From: Escherichia coli | GTDB taxonomy: Bacteria; Pseudomonadota; Gammaproteobacteria; Enterobacterales; Enterobacteriaceae | NCBI RefSeq assembly: GCF_036507355.1 | Contig: NZ_AP027877.1 | DNA: 64,000 bases | Reading direction: 5' to 3' (one strand) | Shown: positions 8,243 through 52,378 of the stretch, in pieces | How the letters are laid out: every line of letters starts with the position of its first letter | How positions within the stretch are numbered: position 1 is the first letter of the stretch | Program-made: the position numbers and the translations under genes | The notes under the pieces: model-generated | What the model was told of the DNA's origin: nothing | The model's database searches: none | The model's input: only the letters and a program-made list of their open reading frames with translations

Positions 8243-9247
8243 TTAACGCGTTGCGGAAGTCGGCGTCTTCATGTAGCGGAAGAAATCGCTATCCGGGCTC
8301 ATGACCATCACGTCCTGATTGCCAGAGAAGCTGTTCTCATAAGCACGCAGGCTACGGATGAATGCGTAGAAGTCCGGATCTTTACTGAATGCATCAGCAA
8401 ACAGTTTGGCTGCTTCGGCATCGCCTTCACCACGCATGATACGGCCCTGACGCTCAGCTTCTGCCAGCGTTCTGGTCACTTCATAGTCGGCAGTCGCGCG
8501 CAGTTTTTCCGCTTCTTCCTGACCTTGTGAACGGTGACGACGCGCTACCGCTTCACGCTCGGCGCGCATACGGTTGTAGATCGCTTCAGACACTTCGGTC
8601 GGCAGGTTGATCTGCTTGATACGCACATCGACAACTTCAATACCCAGCGCCGCCATACTGTTCGGGTTGATGACCGGAACTTTGCCCTTCGTCTCAGCCG
8701 TTACGCGCTCTGCCGCTTCGGCAATGGCGTTATCCGCTGCCGGGGTAGTAACTTCATCTTCTGTACCCGCAGAACCGGAGTTCAGCGCGTCACGTACTTC
8801 GAGGGTCAGACGACCACGGGAATCGGTGACGATGTCTTTCACGTCCAGGCGACCAATTTCAGAACGTAGACGGTCAGAGAACTTACGTTTCAACAGCACT
8901 TCCGCTTGCGAAATGTCGCCACCACCCGTTGCCAGGTAGTAACGGCTGAAATCGCTGATGCGCCATTTGATGTAAGAGTCGACGATCAGGTCTTTCTTCT
9001 CTTTGGTCACAAAGCGGTCGGCCTGGTTGTCCATGGTCTGAATACGTGCGTCGAGCATTTTCACCGTTTCAATGAACGGTATCTTGAAATGCAGACCCGG
9101 CTCATAAACCAGAGGTTTGTTGTCATCGTCACGCAGTACCTTACCAAAACGCAGCGTAATACCGCGCTCACCTTCTTTGACGACAAAGACAGACATGTAA
9201 AGCACTACCAGCACGATGATGATAATCGCGATAACTGACTTACGCAT
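8243..9247 (-). CDS. hflC: FtsH protease modulator HflC
   Basis: 334-aa ORF MRKSVIAIIIIVLVVLYMS..., SPFH/band-7 family. Confidence 0.95.
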   Translation of the reverse strand: MRKSVIAIIIIVLVVLYMSVFVVKEGERGITLRFGKVLRDDDNKPLVYEPGLHFKIPFIETVKMLDARIQTMDNQADRFVTKEKKDLIVDSYIKWRISDFSRYYLATGGGDISQAEVLLKRKFSDRLRSEIGRLDVKDIVTDSRGRLTLEVRDALNSGSAGTEDEVTTPAADNAIAEAAERVTAETKGKVPVINPNSMAALGIEVVDVRIKQINLPTEVSEAIYNRMRAEREAVARRHRSQGQEEAEKLRATADYEVTRTLAEAERQGRIMRGEGDAEAAKLFADAFSKDPDFYAFIRSLRAYENSFSGNQDVMVMSPDSDFFRYMKTPTSATR

Positions 9248-9249
9248 CG

Positions 9250-10509
9250 TTATTCCCCCTGACGCTGGTAGTCGTTACGCTGCGCGTTGGCGCGGCGTTG
9301 GTCCATAATATCGCCCTGACTAGTGGACGACGTGTTGCTTGCTCCACTGGTTGTGGAGGAAGAGGCTGGCGGCAGACGCAGCAGATTGCTGGCACCGTTA
9401 TCGCTCTTCGCCGCAGGGGCGTTACCACCTTTCAGCATCTGGTCTAACGGCAGAACCATCAGGTTGCCACCTTTATCGTTAACCAGCACTTTGCGGGTGT
9501 TACCCAACACTTTTTCCATCGTCTCGATATACAGACGCTCGCGAGTAATTTCAGGCGCGGCTTTATATTCCGGCAGAAGTTTAGCAAAGCGCGCCACTTC
9601 ACCCTGAGCTTCCAGGATGGTCTGGGCCTTGTACGCACGCGCCTCTTCGAGGATACGTTGCGCCTGACCGTTCGCACGCGGCTGAACTTCATTGGTATAC
9701 GCTTCTGCTTCACGAATGTATTGCTGTTCGTTTTCACGCGCGGCAATCGCATCGTCAAACGCCGCTTTTACTTCTTCCGGCGGACGAGCAGCCTGGAAGT
9801 TGACGTCCAGCAGCGTGATACCCATGTCATACGGACGAATCGTCTCTTCCAGTTCGCGCTGAGTATCGCTACGAATCACGGTACGACCTTCCGTCAGAAT
9901 GCGATCCATGGTGTATTTACCGATAACTCCACGCAGGGCGCTGTCGGTAGCCTGACGCAGGCTGTCATCCGGGCTGGTCACGCTATACAGATATTTTTCC
10001 GGATTGGTGACGCGGTACTGCACGTTCATCTCAACGCGCACTACGTTCTCGTCCGACGTCAGCATCACACCAGAAGCGGCCAGTTCACGCACGGCTTCCA
10101 CGTTCACCGGTTTGACTTCGTCGATAAACGTCGGTTTCCAGTTCAGACCCGGCTCAACCAGATGGCTGAATTTACCAAAGCGTGTTACCACGCCGCGTTC
10201 GGCTTCTTTAATGGTATAGAAACCACTGGCCGCCCAGATAATGACAATCGCTGCCGCTGCGATGGTAACGACACGACCGCCAAGCTGCGGGCGCGGGCCT
10301 TGCGATGAACTGCCACCGCCAGATCCGGTGCCTTTACCGCCGCCCAGACCACCGAGCTTTTTGCTCAGTTTGCGGAAGATATCATCTAAATCAGGTGGCC
10401 CTTGATCGCGACCGCCTTTGTTTCCATTTCCCTCAGAGTTGCCGCCAGGTTTGCTGCTTCCCCACGGGTCGCGGTCTTGTCCGTTATTACCGGGCTGATT
10501 CCACGCCAT
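9250..10509 (-). CDS. hflK: FtsH protease modulator HflK
   Basis: 419-aa ORF MAWNQPGNNGQDRDPWGSS..., Gly-rich N-terminus, SPFH domain; stop lies 2 nt upstream of the hflC start. Confidence 0.95.
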   Translation of the reverse strand: MAWNQPGNNGQDRDPWGSSKPGGNSEGNGNKGGRDQGPPDLDDIFRKLSKKLGGLGGGKGTGSGGGSSSQGPRPQLGGRVVTIAAAAIVIIWAASGFYTIKEAERGVVTRFGKFSHLVEPGLNWKPTFIDEVKPVNVEAVRELAASGVMLTSDENVVRVEMNVQYRVTNPEKYLYSVTSPDDSLRQATDSALRGVIGKYTMDRILTEGRTVIRSDTQRELEETIRPYDMGITLLDVNFQAARPPEEVKAAFDDAIAARENEQQYIREAEAYTNEVQPRANGQAQRILEEARAYKAQTILEAQGEVARFAKLLPEYKAAPEITRERLYIETMEKVLGNTRKVLVNDKGGNLMVLPLDQMLKGGNAPAAKSDNGASNLLRLPPASSSTTSGASNTSSTSQGDIMDQRRANAQRNDYQRQGE

Positions 10510-10594
10510 GTTTGTGCTCCATATTTGTTATGCGGTGATCCCTGTTGTCTTTCGACGCCAGAGGATATGACTCCACGCTTCAGACGCTACGCCG

Positions 10595-11875
10595 TTAGAT
10601 CAGGTAATCGATCAACGCCGGTTCTTGTTTACAGAGGCGACGCCAGTCAACGATCGGCATACGAACTTGCAGACTTACGCTGCCGTCCTCCTCCATCCAC
10701 TCTTTTTCTATTGCCTGAAGCTGATAAAAACGACTTCTCAGACGCCCTTCCTGCGGTGGTAGACGCAATGTATGCTGCGCCACCTCGCCGGAAAGCCGCT
10801 CCGTCAAAGCCTGAAAAAGCTGTGGTATCCCCGCTCCGGTCTGTGCGGAAAGCCAGACACGGATCGGTTTGTTCTCTTCGTCCCGATCAATACGCGGTTC
10901 GAAATCTTCCAGCATATCGATCTTGTTCATCACCAGCAGGGTTGGGATCTCGTGAGCGTCGATCTCTTCAAGAACCGTATTCACCGCTTCGATGTTTTCT
11001 TGTACACGCACATCCGCCGCATCAATGACGTGCAGCAGTAATGTGGCTTGCCGCGTCTCTTGTAACGTGGCTTTAAATGCTGCAACCAGATCGTGCGGCA
11101 GGTGGCGAATAAACCCTACGGTATCTGCCAACACGGTTTCACCGACATCTGCAACGTCAATACGCCGCAACGTCGGGTCGAGGGTGGCAAACAACTGGTC
11201 TGCCGCGTAGACCCGCGCTTCGGTGATGCGATTGAAAAGGGTAGATTTACCGGCGTTGGTATATCCCACCAGCGAAACAGTAGGAACGTCGGCTTTGATA
11301 CGCGATTGCCGCCCCTGCTCACGCTGCTTTTCAACTCTTTCCAGGCGCGACTGTATCTGCACGATGCGATTACGCAACAAACGACGGTCGGTTTCGAGCT
11401 GGGTTTCACCCGGACCACGCAAACCTATCCCGCCTTTCTGTCTTTCAAGGTGGGTCCAGCCACGCACCAGGCGCGTAGCCAGATGGCGCAGCTGCGCCAG
11501 CTCAACCTGCAACTTACCCTCATGGGTACGCGCACGTTGGGCGAAAATATCTAAAATAAGGCCGGTGCGGTCGATAACACGACACTCGCACAAACGCTCC
11601 AGGTTACGCTCTTGCGCCGGGCTCAGGGCATGGTCAAAAAGAACGACCGAAGCACCCGTCGCTTTGACAGCTTCCGCAATTTCAACTGCTTTACCTTCAC
11701 CTACAAAATACTTTGGGTGCGGCGCTTTACGGCTACCGGTAATCACCTGCAATGCTTCGACACCGGCGGAAGAGACCAGAGATTCAAACTCCTGGAGGTC
11801 TTCCATATCTTTGTCTTGCGTAAAATAGATGTGTACCAGTACCGCCTGCTCACCAGCATCATAACGGTCAAACAA
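10595..11875 (-). CDS. hflX: Ribosome-associated GTPase HflX
   Basis: 426-aa [21 protein letters not shown]... with [10 protein letters not shown]-loop; first codon is TTG, with an in-frame stop 5 codons upstream. Confidence 0.92.
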
Positions 11876-13296: not shown

Positions 13297-15136
13297 CTTT
13301 CAGGGCTTTTATCGCCGGATGTAAATCAACAGATTGTAACAGACCACCCGGCGGCGTTTTCACAAGTTGCGGACATAACCGTTCCACGTCCGCCAGCAGG
13401 GTTATGGCCTGTGCCATTGACCACTGTGCATGTTCGCTCATCAGATTTCGTGCAATCCACTGCGCAATATTGCCAGGTTCGAATACGGACTGCTTCGCCA
13501 GGTAGCCTATCAGTTCAGGAATCAAGATTTGTAAATTTTGTTGGCGTAAGGGTAAAGGCACGGCCCTGATGGTCACATGCTGTGCATCTGACTGGAAATC
13601 AATACCCAATTCCGCCAGGGCAGACTGCGCTTTTTCTAATGCCGATTTTTCTTCGCCAGAAACTTTTAGCCGCAACGGAATCAGCAACGGCTGGGCGCAA
13701 ACGGGCGCTTCACCCGGCGTCAGTTGTACCTGACGCAGCCAACGTTCTGCCACTGGCAAGGCTAAAAGTGAAATGTTGCCGTCGCGCTCCAGCAACGCAC
13801 AGTCGGAATGGACGATAGTCAGTACCCGACCAAAACTCTGACTGTTCGCCGCAAGTGCAGGTTCCTGCGGTTCCGGCGCTTTTGGTTTTTGCATCGGCGC
13901 GGGCGTTTGCAAAAGCAGGCGATACACTTCACCTTGCTGTTTCTGGTAGCCTGGCTGCGCATTCGGCCAGGGGGCAGCCGGACGACTGCCTGAGGCGGGC
14001 GCAGGAGAGTAGCGCGGAGCTACCGGCTCACGAGCTGCCGGTTCTGCAAAGTGATTGCGCCCCGCCGCCACGCGGTTTTCCGGAATGGGACGCGGTGCAG
14101 GTTGGGGTTCATCGTCCAGCGGTAGCGGCGTTTCCAGTTGCTGTTGTAGCACGCTCAGCACGCCCTGATAGATAAAATCATGCACCAGACGCGACTGATG
14201 GAAACGCACTTCGTGTTTGGCGGGGTGTACGTTGACGTCCACCTGATGCGGGTCGATCTCCAGATACAACACAAACGCCGGTTGTTGATCGGCCCCCAGT
14301 TTGTCTTCGCAGGCCTGGCGGATCGCATGATTGATCAGGCGATCGCGCATCATGCGACCATTCACGTAGCAATACTGAATTTCTGCCAGGGCGGGCGTGG
14401 TGTGATTCGGATCGGCCACCCAGCCGCGCAGGGTGAGATCGCCGTGTTGCCATTCAATCGCCAGCGCTTGTTCGAGAAAAGCGGTGCCACAAATCGCGCC
14501 TAAGCGCCGTTCTTTTTGCCCGCCTTCCGGCACTGCGCGGTACTGACGCACAATTTTACCGTTATGCGACAGGTTGATCGTGACGTCGAAACGCGCCAGC
14601 GCAATGCGGCGGATGATTTCATCGATATGGTTAAATTCGGTTTTCTCGGTGCGCAGGAATTTGCGCCGCGCCGGGGTGTTGTAGAACAGATCCAGCACCT
14701 CCAGCGTCGTTCCCACCGGATGCGCCGCCGGTTTAACCGTCACTTCCATATCGCGCCCTTCGGCATAGGCCTGCCAGGCTTCCTGCTGTTCTGCGGTGCG
14801 TGAAGTGAGCGTCAGGCGGGAAACCGAACTGATACTCGCCAGCGCCTCACCGCGAAAGCCCAGGCTGATAATGGCTTCGAGATCGTCCAGAGAGGCGATT
14901 TTACTGGTGGCATGACGAGCCAGCGCCAGCGCCAGCTCATCTTTTTTGATACCGCAGCCGTTATCACGAATGCGGATAAGTTTCGCCCCACCGCGTTCGA
15001 TATCAATATCGATACGCGTCGCACCTGCATCGAGGCTGTTTTCCACCAGTTCTTTGACTACCGACGCAGGTCGCTCGACCACCTCACCTGCGGCAATCTG
15101 GTTCGCCAGTTGTGGCGGTAAGACCTGAATTGGCAT
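13289..15136 (-). CDS. mutL: DNA mismatch repair protein MutL
   Basis: Track ORF trimmed to the ATG at 15136 ([23 protein letters not shown]..., 615 aa); GHKL ATPase N-terminus. Confidence 0.95.
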
Positions 15137-15145
15137 CAATCGTCC

Positions 15146-16483
15146 TTAGTTTGGCAGCGTGCGATCTGGCGTCGTCACCGTACTGGCCGTTTGTGCCGTT
15201 GCCCCCTGCGGCGCAGATTGCATCGGATGCGCAAGGAAATAATTGCGCAGGCCTTTGTAAATGGCTTCTGCCAGCTGTTGTTGGTAATCGTCGCTCGCCA
15301 GCAAACGTTCTTCGCTGTTGTTGCTGATAAAACCGGTTTCGACCAGTACTGATGGGATATCCGGCGAACGCAGAACGCCAAGGCTGGCATGTTCTGGTCG
15401 GCGTTTATGTATTTCGCCAATGCGTTGCAACTGACTGATCATACTGGTCGCTACATCATACCCTACCCGCTGGGAATGACCGAACTGTAAATCCAGCACC
15501 GCCTGGCTTAAATAGGGGTCAGACTGACTGTTCGCCAGCACATCGCCCGCGCCGCCCAGCAGCTCCGACTGTTTCTCATGCTGTTCCAGCCAGCTTGCCA
15601 TCTCGCTGTTTGCACGACGGTTTGAGAGCACCCATACGGAAGCGCCAGTCGCACTGCGGTTCGGTGCGGCATCAGCGTGAATCGACACGAGGAAATTGGC
15701 GTTTTGCTTACGTGCCACATCGCTGCGCCCCATCACCGAGATAAAGTAATCCCCGTCACGGGTTAAAACGCCTTTAAACATCGGATCGTCATTGAGCAAA
15801 GTACGCAATTTACGCGCGATGGCGATGGTGACATTTTTCTCCCGCGTACCACCGGGGCCGATAGCGCCAGGGTCCTGACCGCCGTGTCCGGCATCAATAG
15901 CGATGATAATTTTATCGCCAGTGTTAGCCGTCGCGCGCGCTGCCGGACGCGTTACCGTATTACTGCTGATAACACCCGTAGTGCGGTTACTTTCCGTTTT
16001 AAACGGATTGCGCGCCGGTTCGCTGACGCGCGGTGCGACAACCGCAGGCGTTTCAACGCGTTTCGCAACCACAGGCGGCGGAGGAGGCGGTGGCGGCGCA
16101 TCGGCGTTAATCGTAAAGACGACAGTGTAATTGCTGCCATTCTGCCGCTTCACCGCTTCGGTTTTACCATTTTCGGTAAGATCGACCACCAGCCGTAGCG
16201 TTTGTGCATCTTTAGGCGTTCCGGAGCGAATCGCCTTCACCAGATTATTACCGCTGAACAACAACGGCAGTCCCTGAATCACGCCCGTTTGTTTGATATC
16301 GAGCGCCACGGTGCGTTTGCTTTGATGGCTAAACGCATAATCAGGATCGCCAATAAAACTCAACGTTATCCGCGCCTGTTGATTACCGTTAGAAACCTGA
16401 ATATCAGAGAGCGTCGCGGCACCCACCTGCGCGCACAGCAGCAGCAACGTCGCTACCAACCAATTTCTGATGCGATACATCAT
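15146..16483 (-). CDS. amiB: N-acetylmuramoyl-L-alanine amidase AmiB
   Basis: Track ORF trimmed to [23 protein letters not shown] (signal peptide, 445 aa); contains an 8-proline tract. Confidence 0.93.
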
Positions 16484-16501
16484 CCTGCCACCTTTCAAAG
16501 G

Positions 16502-28372: not shown

Positions 28373-29350
28373 TTATGCCCGGTCAACGCTAAAGGCGATG
28401 ACTTCAGCCAGTGTCTCCGCGCCCAGCGCCAACATCACCAGACGATCAACGCCTAATGCCACGCCGGAACAGTCAGGCATACCGACTTTCAAGGCTTCAA
28501 TCAGATTCTGGTCAATGGGGTGCTGCGGCAAACCGCGCACCGCGCGCTTACGGTTATCTTGTTCAAAGCGTTGTTGCTGCTCACGGGCATCCGTCAATTC
28601 ATGGAAACCATTCGCCAGCTCAATACCTTTATAATAAACCTCAAAGCGTTCAGCGACCCGATGATCTTCGGTACTGATTTGCGCCAGTGATGCCTGGCTG
28701 GCTGGAAAGTGGTACACAAAGGTCGGTTTTTCTTTACCAATATTTGGCTCTACGCCAAAGGTAAACAGCAATTGTAGCAACGTGTCGCGGTCTTCTTCGG
28801 TATCAGCAACATTGCTCAAATCCAGTTTCGCTGCCACTTCCCGCAGTTGCGTTTTGTCGGCAGAGAGCGGGTCAATTTCCAGATAACGCAAGAAAGCTTG
28901 TTGATAAGAAAGGCTTTCTGCTGCCGGGCAGTCCAGCACTTGTTGTAAGAGATCGTCCACCTCGTTCATCAACCGGTACATATCATAGTGCGGTCGATAC
29001 CACTCAAGCATAGTGAACTCAGGGTTGTGATAACGCCCCATCTCTTCATTACGGAAGCTGCGGCACAGCTGGAATACCGGCCCACAACCAGCAACCAGCA
29101 GGCGTTTCATATGGTATTCCGGGCTGGTCATTAACCAGAGATTCATCCCCTGCGAATGCCCGGGGCCAACGAAACGTGTCTCAAACGGGACCAAATGAAT
29201 ATCGGTTACCGTCGCCTGGCTCATACAAGGCGTCTCCACCTCCAGCACTCCACGATCGGCAAAGAAACGACGGATCTCCGCCATAATCGCCGCGCGTTTT
29301 AATAAGTTAGGAATGGATGCGCTCGGCTGCCAGGATGCCGTTTCGCTCAT
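28373..29350 (-). CDS. epmA: EF-P lysine-34 lysyltransferase EpmA (PoxA/GenX)
   Basis: Track ORF trimmed to the ATG at 29350 ([30 protein letters not shown]..., 325 aa); class II aaRS-like catalytic core. Confidence 0.93.
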
Positions 29351-35732: not shown

Positions 35733-36299
35733 TTACTTCACGCGAGAGACGTATTCACCAGAGCGGGTATCCACTTTGATGACTTCGCCGATTTGTACGA
35801 ACAGCGGAACTTTAACCACAGCGCCAGTAGACAGGGTAGCCGGTTTGCCGCCAGTACCTGCGGTATCACCTTTCAGGCCCGGATCGGTATCAACGATTTC
35901 CAGTTCAACGAAGTTCGGCGGAGTAACGGAGATCGGCTGACCATTCCACAGAGTTACGATACACTCTGCCTGATCCAGCAGCCATTTAGCGTTGTCGCCA
36001 ATTGCTTTTGCGTCAGCAGACAGCTGCTCGAAAGTTTCGTTGTTCATGAAGTGCCAGAACTCACCGTCGTTGTACAGGTAAGTCAGGTTCATATCGACAA
36101 CATCAGCGCCTTCAGCGGAATCAGTAGATTTGAAGGTTTTTTCTACGCGAGTACCGGTCAGCAGACGACGCAGTTTAACGCGAGCAAATGCCTGGCCTTT
36201 ACCCGGTTTTACGAATTCACTCGCTTCAACCGCGTAAGGTTCGCCGTCTAACATGATTTTAAGACCAGCACGAAAATCGTTGCTATAGTACGTTGCCAT
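35733..36299 (-). CDS. efp: Elongation factor P
   Basis: 188-aa [27 protein letters not shown]... with the modified-lysine loop KPGKGQA. Confidence 0.97.
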
Positions 36300-36340: not shown

Positions 36341-37369
36341 ATGGCGCATATTGTAACCCTAAATACCCCATCCAGAGAAGATTGGTTAACGCAACTTGCC
36401 GATGTTGTGACCGATCCTGATGAACTTCTGCGTCTTTTGAATATAGACGCGGACGAAAAACTGTTGGCCGGACGCAGCGCCAAAAAGCTGTTTGCCCTGC
36501 GTGTGCCCCGCTCATTTATCGATCGCATGGAGAAAGGCAATCCGGACGATCCTCTTTTGCGTCAGGTACTTACCTCGCAAGATGAGTTTGTCGTCGCACC
36601 CGGATTCTCCACCGACCCACTGGAAGAACAGCACAGCGTAGTGCCTGGTTTGTTGCATAAATACCACAACCGGGCGCTTTTGCTGGTCAAAGGCGGCTGC
36701 GCGGTAAATTGCCGCTATTGCTTCCGTCGTCACTTCCCTTATGCCGAAAATCAGGGCAACAAGCGTAACTGGCAAACTGCACTTGAGTATGTTGCTGCGC
36801 ATCCGGAACTGGACGAGATGATTTTCTCCGGCGGCGATCCGCTGATGGCGAAAGATCACGAGCTGGACTGGTTGCTCACACAACTGGAAGCCATCCCGCA
36901 TATCAAACGTCTGCGGATTCACAGTCGTCTGCCGATTGTGATCCCGGCACGCATCACAGATGCGCTGGTTGAACGCTTTTCACATTCTACGCTGCAAATC
37001 TTGCTGGTGAATCACATCAACCATGCCAATGAGATAGATGAAACATTCCGTCAGGCGATGGCTAAGTTGCGCCGGGTAGGCGTTACTTTGCTGAACCAGA
37101 GCGTTCTGTTACGTGGTGTGAACGATAACGCACAAACGCTGGCAAACCTGAGTAATGCGTTGTTCGATGCCGGCGTAATGCCGTATTACCTGCATGTGCT
37201 CGATAAAGTACAGGGCGCGGCGCATTTTATGGTGAGTGATGACGAAGCACGGCAGATTATGCGTGAGTTGCTGACACTGGTATCGGGATATCTGGTGCCG
37301 AAACTGGCGCGAGAAATTGGCGGCGAACCCAGCAAAACGCCGCTGGATCTCCAGCTACGCCAGCAGTAA
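36341..37369 (+). CDS. epmB: EF-P beta-lysylation enzyme EpmB (lysine 2,3-aminomutase, YjeK)
   Basis: 342-aa ORF with radical-SAM motif CAVNCRYC; divergent from efp across a 41-bp spacer. Confidence 0.94.
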   Translation: MAHIVTLNTPSREDWLTQLADVVTDPDELLRLLNIDADEKLLAGRSAKKLFALRVPRSFIDRMEKGNPDDPLLRQVLTSQDEFVVAPGFSTDPLEEQHSVVPGLLHKYHNRALLLVKGGCAVNCRYCFRRHFPYAENQGNKRNWQTALEYVAAHPELDEMIFSGGDPLMAKDHELDWLLTQLEAIPHIKRLRIHSRLPIVIPARITDALVERFSHSTLQILLVNHINHANEIDETFRQAMAKLRRVGVTLLNQSVLLRGVNDNAQTLANLSNALFDAGVMPYYLHVLDKVQGAAHFMVSDDEARQIMRELLTLVSGYLVPKLAREIGGEPSKTPLDLQLRQQ

Positions 37370-43633: not shown

Positions 43634-44110
43634 TTAATCCTGGCGATCGTCTTTATGATCAAGGCGGTCGCGGTCATCATCCTTTCGCTGGTACTCACCA
43701 TCAAAAGTATTACCGCCACCGGTCCCGGCGCTAAAACCGCCGCCTGGCATGCGAGAAAAGCGCAAATGTGGCATCAACTTCACTGTCAGATGCTTTTGCA
43801 CCGGCGGCAATAAAAGCAGAAGACCGAGGAAGTCGGTGAAAAAGCCCGGTAATAAAAGCAGCAAACCGGCAATGATCAGCGAAACACTTTTAATCATCTC
43901 CGCCGCAGGGTTTTCACCCGCCGCCATTTTTTGCTGCATCAGCACGAAATTCTTAAAGCCCTGGTTACGTACCAGTGACATACCGATAACTGACGTGAAT
44001 ATAACCAGCACGAGGGTCAGCAATACCCCCAATACATGGGCAACCTGAATAAAGATTGAAATCTCAATATAGACATAAAGGAAAATGGCAATAAAAGGTA
44101 ACCAGCGCAA
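43634..44110 (-). CDS. fxsA: Inner-membrane protein FxsA
   Basis: 158-aa ORF MRWLPFIAIFLYVYIEISIFIQVAHV... with charged C-terminal tail; TTG start. Confidence 0.87.
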   Translation of the reverse strand: MRWLPFIAIFLYVYIEISIFIQVAHVLGVLLTLVLVIFTSVIGMSLVRNQGFKNFVLMQQKMAAGENPAAEMIKSVSLIIAGLLLLLPGFFTDFLGLLLLLPPVQKHLTVKLMPHLRFSRMPGGGFSAGTGGGNTFDGEYQRKDDDRDRLDHKDDRQD

Positions 44111-47756: not shown

Positions 47757-49429
47757 TCCTGCTACTTTGCAGCACTTCCGTTTTTGCCGGATTATTCGAC
47801 GCGCCGGGACGTTCACAATTTGTCCCCGCGGATCAAGCCTTTACTTTTGATTTTCAGCAAAACCAACATGACCTTAATCTGACCTGGCAGATCAAAGACG
47901 GTTACTACCTCTACCGTAAACAGATCCGCATTACGCCGGAACACGCGAAAATTGCCGACGTGCAGCTTCCGCAAGGCGTCTGGCATGAAGATGAGTTTTA
48001 CGGCAAAAGCGAGATTTACCGCGATCGGCTGACGCTTCCCGTAACCATCAACCAGGCGAGTGCGGGAGCGACGTTAACTGTCACCTACCAGGGCTGTGCT
48101 GATGCCGGTTTCTGTTATCCGCCAGAAACCAAAACCGTTCCGTTAAGCGAAGTGGTCGCCAACAACGCAGCGTCACAGCCTGTGTCTGTTTCGCAGCAAG
48201 AGCAGCACACCGCGCAATTGCCCTTTTCCGCGCTCTGGGCGTTGTTGATCGGTATTGGTATCGCCTTTACGCCATGCGTGCTGCCAATGTACCCACTGAT
48301 TTCTGGCATCGTGCTGGGTGGTAAACAGCGGCTCTCCACTGCCAGAGCATTGTTGCTGACCTTTATTTATGTGCAGGGGATGGCACTGACTTACACGGCG
48401 CTGGGTCTGGTAGTTGCCGCCGCAGGGTTACAGTTCCAGGCGGCGCTACAGCACCCATACGTGCTCATTGGCCTCGCCATCGTCTTTACCTTGCTGGCGA
48501 TGTCAATGTTTGGCTTGTTTACTCTACAACTCCCCTCCTCGCTGCAAACGCGCCTCACGCTGATGAGCAATCGCCAACAGGGCGGCTCACCCGGCGGAGT
48601 GTTTATTATGGGGGCGATTGCCGGACTGATCTGTTCACCATGCACCACCGCACCGCTTAGCGCGATTCTGCTGTATATCGCCCAAAGCGGGAACATGTGG
48701 CTGGGCGGCGGCACGCTTTATCTCTATGCGTTGGGCATGGGCCTGCCGCTGATGCTAATTACCGTCTTTGGTAACCGCTTGCTGCCGAAAAGCGGCCCGT
48801 GGATGGAACAAGTCAAAACCGCGTTTGGTTTTGTGATCCTCGCACTGCCGGTCTTCCTGCTGGAGCGAGTGATTGGTGATATATGGGGATTACGCTTGTG
48901 GTCGGCGCTGGGTGTCGCATTCTTTGGCTGGGCCTTTATCACCAGCCTACAGACCAAACGCGGCTGGATGCGCGTGGTGCAAATAATCCTGCTGGCAGCG
49001 GCATTGGTTAGCGTGCGCCCACTTCAGGATTGGGCATTTGGTGCGACGCATACCGCGCAAACTCAGACGCATCTCAACTTTACACAAATCAAAACGGTAG
49101 ATGAGTTAAATCAGGCGCTCGTTGAAGCCAAAGGCAAACCGGTGATATTAGATCTTTATGCCGACTGGTGCGTCGCCTGTAAAGAGTTTGAGAAATACAC
49201 CTTCAGCGACCCGCAGGTGCAAAAAGCGTTAGCAGACACGGTCTTACTTCAGGCCAACGTCACGGCCAACGACGCACAAGATGTGGCGCTGTTAAAGCAT
49301 CTTAATGTCCTTGGCCTACCGACAATTCTCTTTTTTGACGGACAAGGCCAGGAGCATCCACAAGCACGCGTCACGGGCTTTATGGATGCTGAAACCTTCA
49401 GCGCACATTTGCGCGATCGCCAACCGTGA
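47732..49429 (+). CDS. dsbD: Thiol:disulfide interchange protein DsbD
   Basis: ATG at 47732 ([19 protein letters not shown]..., 565 aa); C-terminal thioredoxin CxxC ([10 protein letters not shown]); overlaps the cutA 3' end by 25 nt. Confidence 0.93.
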
Positions 49430-50839: not shown

Positions 50840-52378
50840 ATGCAACAACCTGTAGTTCGCGTTGGCGAATGGCTTGTTACTCCGTCCATAAACCAAATTA
50901 GCCGCAATGGGCGTCAACTTACCCTTGAGCCGAGATTAATCGATCTTCTGGTTTTCTTTGCTCAACACAGTGGCGAAGTACTTAGCAGGGATGAACTTAT
51001 CGATAATGTCTGGAAGAGAAGTATTGTCACCAATCACGTTGTGACGCAGAGTATCTCAGAACTACGTAAGTCATTAAAAGATAATGATGAAGATAGTCCT
51101 GTCTATATCGCTACTGTACCAAAGCGCGGCTATAAATTAATGGTGCCGGTTATCTGGCACAGCGAAGAAGAGGGAGAGGAAATAATGCTATCTTCGCCTC
51201 CCCCTATACCAGAGGCGGTTCCTGCCACAGATTCTCCCTCCCACAGTCTTAACATTCAAAACACCGCAACGCCACCTGAACAATCCCCAGTTAAAAGCAA
51301 ACGATTCACTACCTTTTGGGTATGGTTTTTTTTCCTGTTGTCCTTAGGTATCTGTGTAGCACTGGTAGCGTTTTCAAGTCTTGATACACGTCTTCCGATG
51401 AGCAAATCGCGTATTTTGCTCAATCCACGCGATATTGACATTAATATGGTAAATAAAAGTTGTAACAGCTGGAGTTCCCCGTATCAGCTCTCTTACGCGA
51501 TAGGCGTGGGTGATTTGGTGGCGACATCACTTAACACCTTCTCCACCTTTATGGTGCATGACAAAATCAACTACAACATTGATGAACCGAGCAGTTCCGG
51601 TAAAACATTATCTATTGCGTTTGTTAATCAGCGCCAATACCGTGCTCAACAATGCTTTATGTCGATAAAATTGGTAGACAATGCAGATGGTTCAACCATG
51701 CTGGATAAACGTTATGTCATCACTAACGGTAATCAGCTGGCGATTCAAAATGATTTACTGGAGAGTTTATCAAAAGCGTTAAACCAACCGTGGCCACAAC
51801 GAATGCAGGAGACGCTCCAGCAAATTTTGCCTCATCGTGGTGCGTTATTAACTAATTTTTATCAGGCACATGATTATTTACTGCATGGCGATGATAAATC
51901 ATTGAACCGTGCCAGTGAATTATTAGGTGAGATTGTTCAATCATCTCCAGAATTTACCTACGCGAGAGCAGAAAAAGCATTAGTTGATATCGTGCGCCAT
52001 TCTCAACATCCTTTAGATGAAAAACAATTAGCAGCACTGAACACAGAAATAGATAACATTGTTACACTACCGGAATTGAATAACTTGTCCATTATATATC
52101 AAATAAAAGCGGTCAGTGCTCTGGTAAAAGGTAAAACAGATGAGTCTTACCAGGCGATAAATACTGGCATTGATCTTGAAATGTCCTGGCTAAATTATGT
52201 ATTGCTTGGCAAGGTTTATGAAATGAAGGGGATGAACCGGGAAGCGGCTGATGCATATCTCACCGCCTTTAATTTACGCCCAGGGGCAAACACCCTTTAC
52301 TGGATTGAAAATGGTATATTCCAGACTTCTGTTCCTTATGTTGTACCTTATCTCGACAAATTTCTCGCTTCAGAATAA
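50840..52378 (+). CDS. cadC: Membrane-integrated transcriptional activator CadC (ToxR-like)
   Basis: 512-aa ORF MQQPVVRVGEWLVTPSINQISRNGRQLTLEPRLIDLL... with N-terminal winged-helix, single TM segment and periplasmic sensor. Confidence 0.95.
   Translation: MQQPVVRVGEWLVTPSINQISRNGRQLTLEPRLIDLLVFFAQHSGEVLSRDELIDNVWKRSIVTNHVVTQSISELRKSLKDNDEDSPVYIATVPKRGYKLMVPVIWHSEEEGEEIMLSSPPPIPEAVPATDSPSHSLNIQNTATPPEQSPVKSKRFTTFWVWFFFLLSLGICVALVAFSSLDTRLPMSKSRILLNPRDIDINMVNKSCNSWSSPYQLSYAIGVGDLVATSLNTFSTFMVHDKINYNIDEPSSSGKTLSIAFVNQRQYRAQQCFMSIKLVDNADGSTMLDKRYVITNGNQLAIQNDLLESLSKALNQPWPQRMQETLQQILPHRGALLTNFYQAHDYLLHGDDKSLNRASELLGEIVQSSPEFTYARAEKALVDIVRHSQHPLDEKQLAALNTEIDNIVTLPELNNLSIIYQIKAVSALVKGKTDESYQAINTGIDLEMSWLNYVLLGKVYEMKGMNREAADAYLTAFNLRPGANTLYWIENGIFQTSVPYVVPYLDKFLASE

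Follow-up and report, generated by a model that had tools for sequence, protein, structure and literature searches.

The analyzed stretch of Escherichia coli DNA, in the following referred to as the window, comprises 64,000 nucleotides and contains the gene amiB on its minus strand (Table 1). The encoded protein, which begins with MMYRIRNW, was assigned to the AmiB family by its full-length match to the NCBIfam equivalog profile NF007751 (978.3 bits versus a cut-off of 532; residues 1-445 on profile positions 1-445), by Pfam matches to AMIN (PF11741, residues 27-112) and Amidase_3 (PF01520, residues 194-413) that give the order AMIN-linker-Amidase_3, and by the gene order tsaE-amiB-mutL-miaA-hfq, on which the open reading frames of the window, the K-12 annotation, and the Citrobacter and Yersiniaceae loci agree. 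tsaE lies upstream of amiB, and the amiB stop codon is separated from the mutL start by 9 nt, as in K-12. The feature of interest is a tract of proline codons that reads AGG CGG CGG AGG AGG CGG TGG CGG on the plus strand; its reverse complement, CCG CCA CCG CCT CCT CCG CCG CCT, is in frame with amiB and encodes P130-P137. An earlier sequence-only reading had described the eight-proline tract, its codon string, and the identity of the gene, all of which proved correct on the basis of the window sequence and the profile matches. That amiB is encoded on the minus strand had not been mentioned there.

Table 1. Features of amiB and of the EF-P-related genes in the 64,000-nt window
Feature	Position	Strand	Basis
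amiB CDS, 445 aa + stop, ATG start	15146-16483	-	profile matches; RefSeq annotation of the K-12 orthologue agrees
N-terminal signal peptide of AmiB, residues 1-22, hydrophobic helix without twin-arginine motif	16418-16483	-	sequence; AF2 helix residues 2-15
AMIN domain, residues 24-127, beta-sandwich, last strand 118-127 (...VVFTINAD)	16103-16414	-	PF11741; AF2 pLDDT ~80-90
Inter-domain linker, residues 128-189, proline tract first, then conserved VVAKRVE.P..APRP.EPARNPF	15917-16102	-	AF2; 80-species comparison
Eight-proline codon tract, AmiB P130-P137	16073-16096	-	window sequence, translation
Amidase_3 catalytic domain, residues 190-420	15224-15916	-	PF01520; PDB 8c0j; AF2 confident
epmA, EF-P--(R)-beta-lysine ligase	28373-29350	-	NF006828 equivalog, 603 bits
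efp, elongation factor P	35733-36299	-	TIGR00038, NF001810
epmB, EF-P beta-lysylation radical-SAM aminomutase, divergent from efp	36341-37369	+	TIGR03821 equivalog, 534 bits
cadC	50840-52378	+	PPP-containing real gene
cadC PPP motif CCT CCC CCT, CadC residues 120-122	51197-51205	+	second genuine PPP in the window

The window contains a single run of eight CCN codons, whereas 100 dinucleotide-preserving shuffles contain none, and the amiB tract is also the sole run of at least five CCN codons in any frame of the window. Having at least three successive proline codons in a translated reading frame, amiB carries a polyproline stalling motif. Only two real genes, amiB and cadC, were found among the PPP-containing open reading frames of at least 100 aa. 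The frames at 8580-8936, 10390-11025, and 43659-44045 on the plus strand and at 48394-48717 on the minus strand had no family matches and were rejected as genes, as was the frame at 13819-14172 (plus strand), which lies antisense within mutL. An antisense frame at 15884-16198 (plus strand) with the peptide RRRRRRWRR was likewise rejected, as this stretch is simply the GGN complement of the amiB tract.

To place the tract in the protein, we used an AlphaFold2 model of AmiB that was built from an alignment of 76 sequences. According to the model, two confidently predicted domains are joined by a region with pLDDT values below 50 (residues 130-188), and the proline tract begins three residues past the last AMIN beta-strand, where it opens the predicted disordered linker. 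H200, E215, and H269 of the catalytic domain, which we take to be the zinc ligands of AmiB, are invariant in the 76 sequences. The N-terminus suggests that AmiB is exported by a route that does not involve a twin-arginine motif. There is one solved structure of E. coli AmiB (PDB 8c0j), which covers residues 190-422, and the tract lies outside it.

We next analyzed the alleles that occur within E. coli. amiB is present in 5,425 of 5,426 complete E. coli genomes. The allele of the window is 95-99% identical to that of nearly all of these genomes, with a best value of 99.0%, and it is 98.4% identical to K-12 over amiB with 600 bp on either side. The tract length is not fixed. Eight uninterrupted prolines are encoded not only in the window and in K-12 but also in MB50 and STEC434, seven prolines in O145 RM8843-C1, and six in STLEFF_29 and SX4. 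An interrupted six-codon tract, PPSPPP, is found in UPEC 26-1, MS15046, VTB96929v, 1002W03, and Nissle 1917. EC42405 has eleven prolines in an arrangement that resembles a duplication of CCG CCA CCG.

The sizes of the allele classes were estimated by searching the complete E. coli genomes with short tract-spanning queries. The eight-codon class comprises about 4,500-4,550 genomes (~84%). The six-codon class, which includes Nissle 1917, comprises about 848-872 genomes (~16%), whereby the BLAST identity bands count this class as a whole, with PPPPPP and PPSPPP pooled; for the PPPPPP allele itself, exact or one-mismatch hits were obtained in at least 44 genomes. The seven-codon class probably has about 7 genomes, and the eleven-codon allele occurs in one. 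Length thus differs among strains. Some 4,500 of roughly 5,400 complete genomes share the eight-codon allele, and no assembly artefact is involved; an assembly error as the source of the tract was rejected, as thousands of independent genomes carry it. All length variants (6, 7, 8, and 11 codons) are in frame and their codons are mixed, so that the tract does not behave as a simple-sequence contingency repeat. Every natural allele that we saw, including PPSPPP, keeps at least one PPP. Because alleles with six, seven, eight, and eleven codons as well as PPSPPP occur in E. coli, eight prolines as such are not required. The interrupted six-codon tract is borne by ordinary, successful E. coli lineages.

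Beyond E. coli, one genome per species was scanned for 80 named Enterobacteriaceae, including members of Escherichia, Citrobacter, Salmonella, Enterobacter, Klebsiella, Raoultella, Kosakonia, Kluyvera, Buttiauxella, and Trabulsiella. A proline run directly follows the motif FT[ILV]xAD[AVTEI] in all 80 species. The length of this run is 3 in one species, 4 in two, 5 in 12, 6 in 16, 7 in 14, 8 in 29, 9 in five, and 10 in one; the mode is therefore eight (29/80), and 76 of the 80 species have 5-9 prolines. The 29 species with exactly eight prolines encode them by 29 distinct DNA strings, in which third positions are saturated while all codons remain CCN. This pattern argues for selection on the protein and strongly indicates that the amino acids of the tract are under purifying selection. 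The longest stretch of one and the same codon is at most three in 75 of the 80 species. The sequence-only reading had argued from the mixed codons that the tract is selected at the protein level and is not a simple repeat. The presence of the run in 80/80 species and the 29 codon strings among the 29 eight-proline species bear out the first half of this argument and give it a firmer footing than one sequence could provide, whereas the second half needs qualification, as the in-frame length alleles behave like those of a short imperfect triplet repeat.

In AmiB proteins of Citrobacter, which are ~88% identical, eight prolines are modal, but seven, nine, or ten also occur, as do interruptions by L, A, or S. 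No proline run was found in two 50%-identity representatives whose 90%-identity cluster mates are RefSeq Yersiniaceae AmiB and Sodalis AmiB. Most of the more distant AmiB-like representatives have Ser/Thr-rich or Pro/Ala/Thr-rich linkers with runs of no more than three prolines. As these distant linkers do without long runs, proline richness is a property of the linker, with the unbroken run as a lineage-specific version of it in the Enterobacteriaceae, as judged from the sequences compared.

Across the 80 species, the tract codons are the common CCG (50%), CCA (25%), CCT (23%), and CCC (3%). Inside the run, not counting its last codon, only 7 of 471 codons are CCC (1.5%), compared with 164 of the 1,769 other proline codons of the same genes (9.3%). 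This depletion is about six-fold (Fisher p = 1.4e-10, a value that is overstated since the species are related). In the final position of the run, 8.7% of the codons are CCC. CCT is at background, with 21.9% both inside the tract and elsewhere in amiB. The simplest reading of this pattern is avoidance of C homopolymers of at least five nucleotides, which are mutationally unstable and, according to a review (PMC12856214), tend to slow decoding and +1 frameshifting at CCC/CCU pairs. The amiB tract does not show the pattern of slow, rare CCC/CCU proline codon pairs that would characterize a CadC-type throttle.

It is well established that three or more prolines in a row stall ribosomes and that EF-P relieves this stalling (Ude 2013 and Doerfel 2013, cited after the summaries in PMC5811046 and PMC12856214). 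According to Martens et al. (2015, PMC4402525), no proline run of E. coli is longer than that of amiB, and ribosome footprints of wild-type K-12 rise sharply at this site. This was the only relevant paper found on AmiB in connection with EF-P or polyproline pausing. The tract and its pausing are thus already known from the literature. EF-P and its modification enzymes are encoded by the host, as efp, epmA, and epmB are all present in the window. A dependence of amiB on EF-P is plausible, as it would follow from the general PPP rule in combination with the published wild-type pause. In the literature covered, which did not include Peil 2013 and Woolstenhulme 2015, we found no AmiB data from efp, epmA, or epmB mutants, and amiB does not appear in the supplementary data of Elgamal 2014 or Elgamal 2016. 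For a delta-efp strain, a short list of genes was lowered by SILAC as well as by RNA-seq (PMC5021804, Table 1), and AmiB is not on it; the list is very restrictive, and AmiB is a low-abundance protein.

The sequence-only reading had placed the tract in one context with efp, epmA, and epmB. The presence of these three genes in the same window was borne out, each by an equivalog-level match, but the meaning that might be attached to their proximity was not. The gene order of the window matches that of K-12, with amiB followed by tsaE, nnr, queG, three tRNA-Gly genes, orn, rsgA, psd, mscM, yjeO, yjeN, yjeM, and epmA, and onward by frdABCD, ampC, blc, sugE, ecnB, ecnA, efp, and epmB. The gap between amiB and epmA measures 12.3 kb and is filled by about 11 protein-coding genes along with three tRNA genes and several opposed transcription units, and the gap between amiB and efp measures 19.6 kb with about 20 unrelated protein genes, nine of which separate epmA from efp. 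With such kilobase gaps and mixed strands, amiB is neither adjacent to nor co-transcribed with the EF-P genes. Moreover, Yersiniaceae have the identical block mscM...tsaE-amiB-mutL...rnr although their AmiB lacks a proline run, so that this neighborhood does not depend on the tract; the 10-kb flank that was compared ends at mscM, and this synteny therefore covers the amiB side only. As EF-P acts in trans, which leaves no obvious mechanism in cis, as unrelated genes lie in between, and as the Yersiniaceae neighborhood is the same without the run, the co-location is best read as conserved enterobacterial synteny plus chance.

The window also holds cadA and cadC, so that EF-P, both lysylation enzymes, the gene with the longest polyproline run, and cadC are found together. 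cadC is the founding EF-P target through its PPP motif. An E. coli genome encodes about 100 PPP proteins, from which about 1.3 would be expected among the ~58 genes of the window, as compared to the two that were found. In a delta-efp strain, cadA was lowered (PMC5021804).

Taken together, we consider it probable, at roughly 0.7, that the tract is a structural element: the linker would begin with a stiff stalk in polyproline-II conformation, which is selected at the protein level and tolerates about 5-10 prolines, and whose translation causes a pause that is mitigated by EF-P. Eight prolines would form a stiff and extended polyproline-II segment of about 2.5 nm, which may project the linker away from the septum-targeting AMIN domain. 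This spacer property would be held by selection on the protein in the Enterobacteriaceae within the range of about 5-10 prolines. As the tract would slow peptide-bond formation, efficient synthesis of AmiB should need beta-lysylated EF-P, and this dependence would be a by-product or price of how the linker is composed rather than the purpose of that composition, with no regulatory aim behind it. Against the stalk, the family-wide mode of exactly eight prolines is more regular than a loose spacer predicts.

If the pause itself were what is selected, the tract could serve as a regulatory throttle that makes AmiB output dependent on EF-P as in CadC, either to keep the amidase dose low or to tie it to the translational state. 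The published wild-type pause at the tract (PMC4402525), the family-wide conservation of the motif together with the retention of at least one PPP in every natural allele, and the CadC precedent in the same window are in agreement with such a role. We nevertheless regard it as unlikely, as the tract codons are synonymously saturated and shun the slow CCC, whereas CadC uses CCT CCC CCT, as a length range of 3-11 is hard to square with a tuned pause, as AmiB of Yersiniaceae and Sodalis does without the run, and as AmiB does not appear among the common down-regulated genes of the delta-efp strain (PMC5021804, Table 1). A bolder proposal extends the effect of the pause to the downstream genes. The run of about eight prolines would then be more than a spacer and would act, at the start of the amiB-mutL-miaA-hfq superoperon, as a checkpoint gated by EF-P. 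A stall at codons 130-137 under limiting EF-P or limiting lysylation would lower AmiB and, by uncoupling transcription from translation and allowing Rho to terminate within amiB, would also reduce read-through into mutL, miaA, and hfq. In reporters, loss of EF-P in combination with a rut site indeed caused a ~30-fold loss of expression downstream of a polyproline sequence (Elgamal 2016, PMC5021804), amiB-mutL-miaA-hfq-hflXKC form one superoperon (PMC12249760), and the 9 nt between the amiB stop and the mutL start also fit this idea. However, no convincing rut-like stretch that is C-rich and G-poor was found downstream of the tract, where the best 78-nt segment has 29 C and 18 G and includes the tract itself; about ten internal promoters of the superoperon would buffer the downstream genes (PMC12249760), and neither amiB nor mutL is mentioned in PMC5021804 or its supplements. 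Both the switch in polarity and the checkpoint built on it are therefore improbable in our view.

Two further explanations do not invoke the pause as a selected trait. The tract could be a neutral low-complexity repeat, in which CCN triplets are generated and resized by replication slippage without any selected role. The in-frame alleles of six, seven, eight, and eleven codons in E. coli, including the eleven-proline allele with its apparent CCG CCA CCG duplication, and the length differences among species are what slippage would produce. Yet the run was lost in none of the 80 species despite saturated synonymous divergence, its codons are mixed with same-codon stretches of at most three in 75 of 80 species, and the avoidance of CCC points to a sequence under constraint, which makes neutrality very improbable. 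Hardly credible is a functional clustering, according to which the gene with the longest polyproline run would gain from linkage to efp, epmA, and epmB. amiB, cadC, cadA, efp, epmA, and epmB do lie within about 40 kb, but EF-P is diffusible and acts in trans, the intervening genes and opposed units described above separate amiB from epmA and efp, the amiB block is identical in Yersiniaceae without the proline run, and two PPP proteins in ~58 genes are near expectation. The stiff stalk at the start of the linker thus remains our preferred reading.

In terms of significance, the amiB tract, located in the linker of a cell-division amidase, is a textbook-type example of a polyproline sequence and a handy natural reporter of EF-P activity. 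Our additions to what was known are modest, namely the family-wide conservation with flexible length and a mode of eight, the absence of the run in the sampled sister families (Yersiniaceae and Sodalis), and the depletion of CCC. The natural 6P, PPSPPP, 7P, and 11P alleles are ready-made variants for experiments. The tract would carry greater weight only if the stall controlled the dose of AmiB or the expression of mutL, miaA, and hfq, and if the checkpoint were real, translational stress would be coupled to the separation of cells, to mismatch repair, and to regulation by sRNAs.

The closest known counterpart is the K-12 AmiB tract itself (Martens et al., 2015, PMC4402525), which is in the same gene at the same position and also has eight prolines at codons 130-137. 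The two sequences differ in the last codon of the tract, which is CCT in the window and CCC in K-12 (a synonymous exchange), and in residue 129, which is alanine in the window and valine in K-12. In terms of architecture, AmiC (PDB 4BIN) and AmiB of P. aeruginosa (PMC10214136) share the order AMIN-linker-amidase; their linker of about 40-60 residues is flexible and allows the AMIN domain to relocate. For the P. aeruginosa complex, a flexible AmiB linker and a movement of the AMIN domain on activation have been described, and the equivalent 40-residue linker was not resolved by cryo-EM (PMC10214136). In contrast to these proteins, an unbroken proline run that opens the linker is found only in AmiB of the Enterobacteriaceae among the sequences compared.

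The position of the tract can also be compared with the general distribution of polyproline motifs, which Qi et al. (2018, PMC5811046) found to be enriched between residues -2 and +9 relative to the ends of domains. With its location at +3 to +10 from the end of the AMIN domain, the AmiB tract is within this zone or one residue past it. Qi et al. proposed that pauses at domain boundaries help co-translational folding (PMC5811046). This rationale probably fits AmiB poorly, because at the time of the stall the final strands of the AMIN domain would not yet have left the ribosome tunnel, and because AmiB bears a signal peptide and is predicted to be exported.

A further comparison is with the membrane regulator CadC, whose PPP motif mediates an EF-P-dependent control of its copy number (Ude et al., 2013; reviewed in PMC12856214) and whose choice of rare codons has been reported to strengthen the regulatory pause (PMC12856214). 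AmiB resembles CadC in having successive prolines just outside a folded domain, in being a low-abundance envelope protein, and in being encoded in the same window. However, the three prolines of CadC are encoded by rare, slow codons and have a demonstrated regulatory role, whereas AmiB has eight prolines that avoid CCC and vary in number, and a regulatory role of these prolines is only hypothetical.

The eight-proline run of AmiB (P130-P137; window 16073-16096, minus strand) opens a linker, residues 128-189, in which AlphaFold2 assigned pLDDT values below 50 to residues 130-188 ('disordered'). Within this linker, the segment VVAKRVE.P..APRP.EPARNPF was well conserved in all 80 Enterobacteriaceae species compared, each represented by one genome. 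Its NPF triplet was also kept in members of the Yersiniaceae and Sodalis clusters and in one more representative, and it occurred in 38 of the 76 aligned AmiB sequences used for the structure model. The triplet may represent a short linear motif.

We also examined shortened AmiB proteins of 412-420 aa from E. coli, Shigella sonnei and Shigella flexneri (variants P0007-P0017), with a deletion assignment that covers P0007-P0013, P0016 and P0017. The variants P0007-P0013 and P0017 (414-420 aa) lacked 25-31 aa of the linker downstream of the tract, and thereby had lost the NPF segment and retained all eight prolines. One variant was found on 23 contigs, including one complete chromosome. P0016 (412 aa) contained the segment with NPF and was shortened at another place. 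The AmiB of Escherichia whittamii carried a 10-residue tandem duplication immediately after the eight prolines, which adds to the evidence that the linker tolerates indels.

Across the 80 species, which are related and not phylogenetically independent, CCC made up 1.5% of the proline codons inside the run compared to 9.3% of those elsewhere in the gene, an approximately six-fold depletion that was not seen at the last codon of the run (8.7%). This pattern fits the idea that C homopolymers or frameshift-prone CCC-C contexts are avoided.

Judged by sequence identity, the amiB allele of the window (15146-16498) is unusual, as it was 98.0% identical to that of K-12, and among the 5,425 complete E. 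coli genomes compared, MB50 alone (99.0%) reached at least 99%. These identities point to a source strain from a lineage that is sparse among complete genomes, or to a recombinant amiB locus.

Features of the amiB linker and of cadC in the window
Feature	Position	Strand	Remark
AmiB NPF triplet, N159-P160-F161	16001-16009	-	
AmiB linker around NPF	15917-16072	-	
Antisense ORF, 104 aa	15884-16198	+	contains RRRRRRWRR
cadC	50840-52378	+	second PPP-encoding gene in the window with amiB
CadC PPP motif, residues 120-122	51197-51205	+	rare codons CCT CCC CCT

The antisense ORF had no support and was rejected as a gene. Its arginine-rich stretch simply reflects the proline codons on the other strand, as their GGN complement.

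Among EF-P-dependent polyproline proteins, CadC is the classic example. The sequence-only reading, which had listed the AmiB tract together with efp, epmA and epmB, did not mention cadC. Downstream of it, in the order of the K-12 map, are cadB, cadA, dtpC and a lysyl-tRNA synthetase gene.

In two Yersiniaceae loci, AmiB is 568 aa long, carries LysM domains at its C-terminus and lacks a proline run. The gene nevertheless occupies a block, mscM...tsaE-amiB-mutL-miaA-hfq...rnr, that is shared with E. coli.
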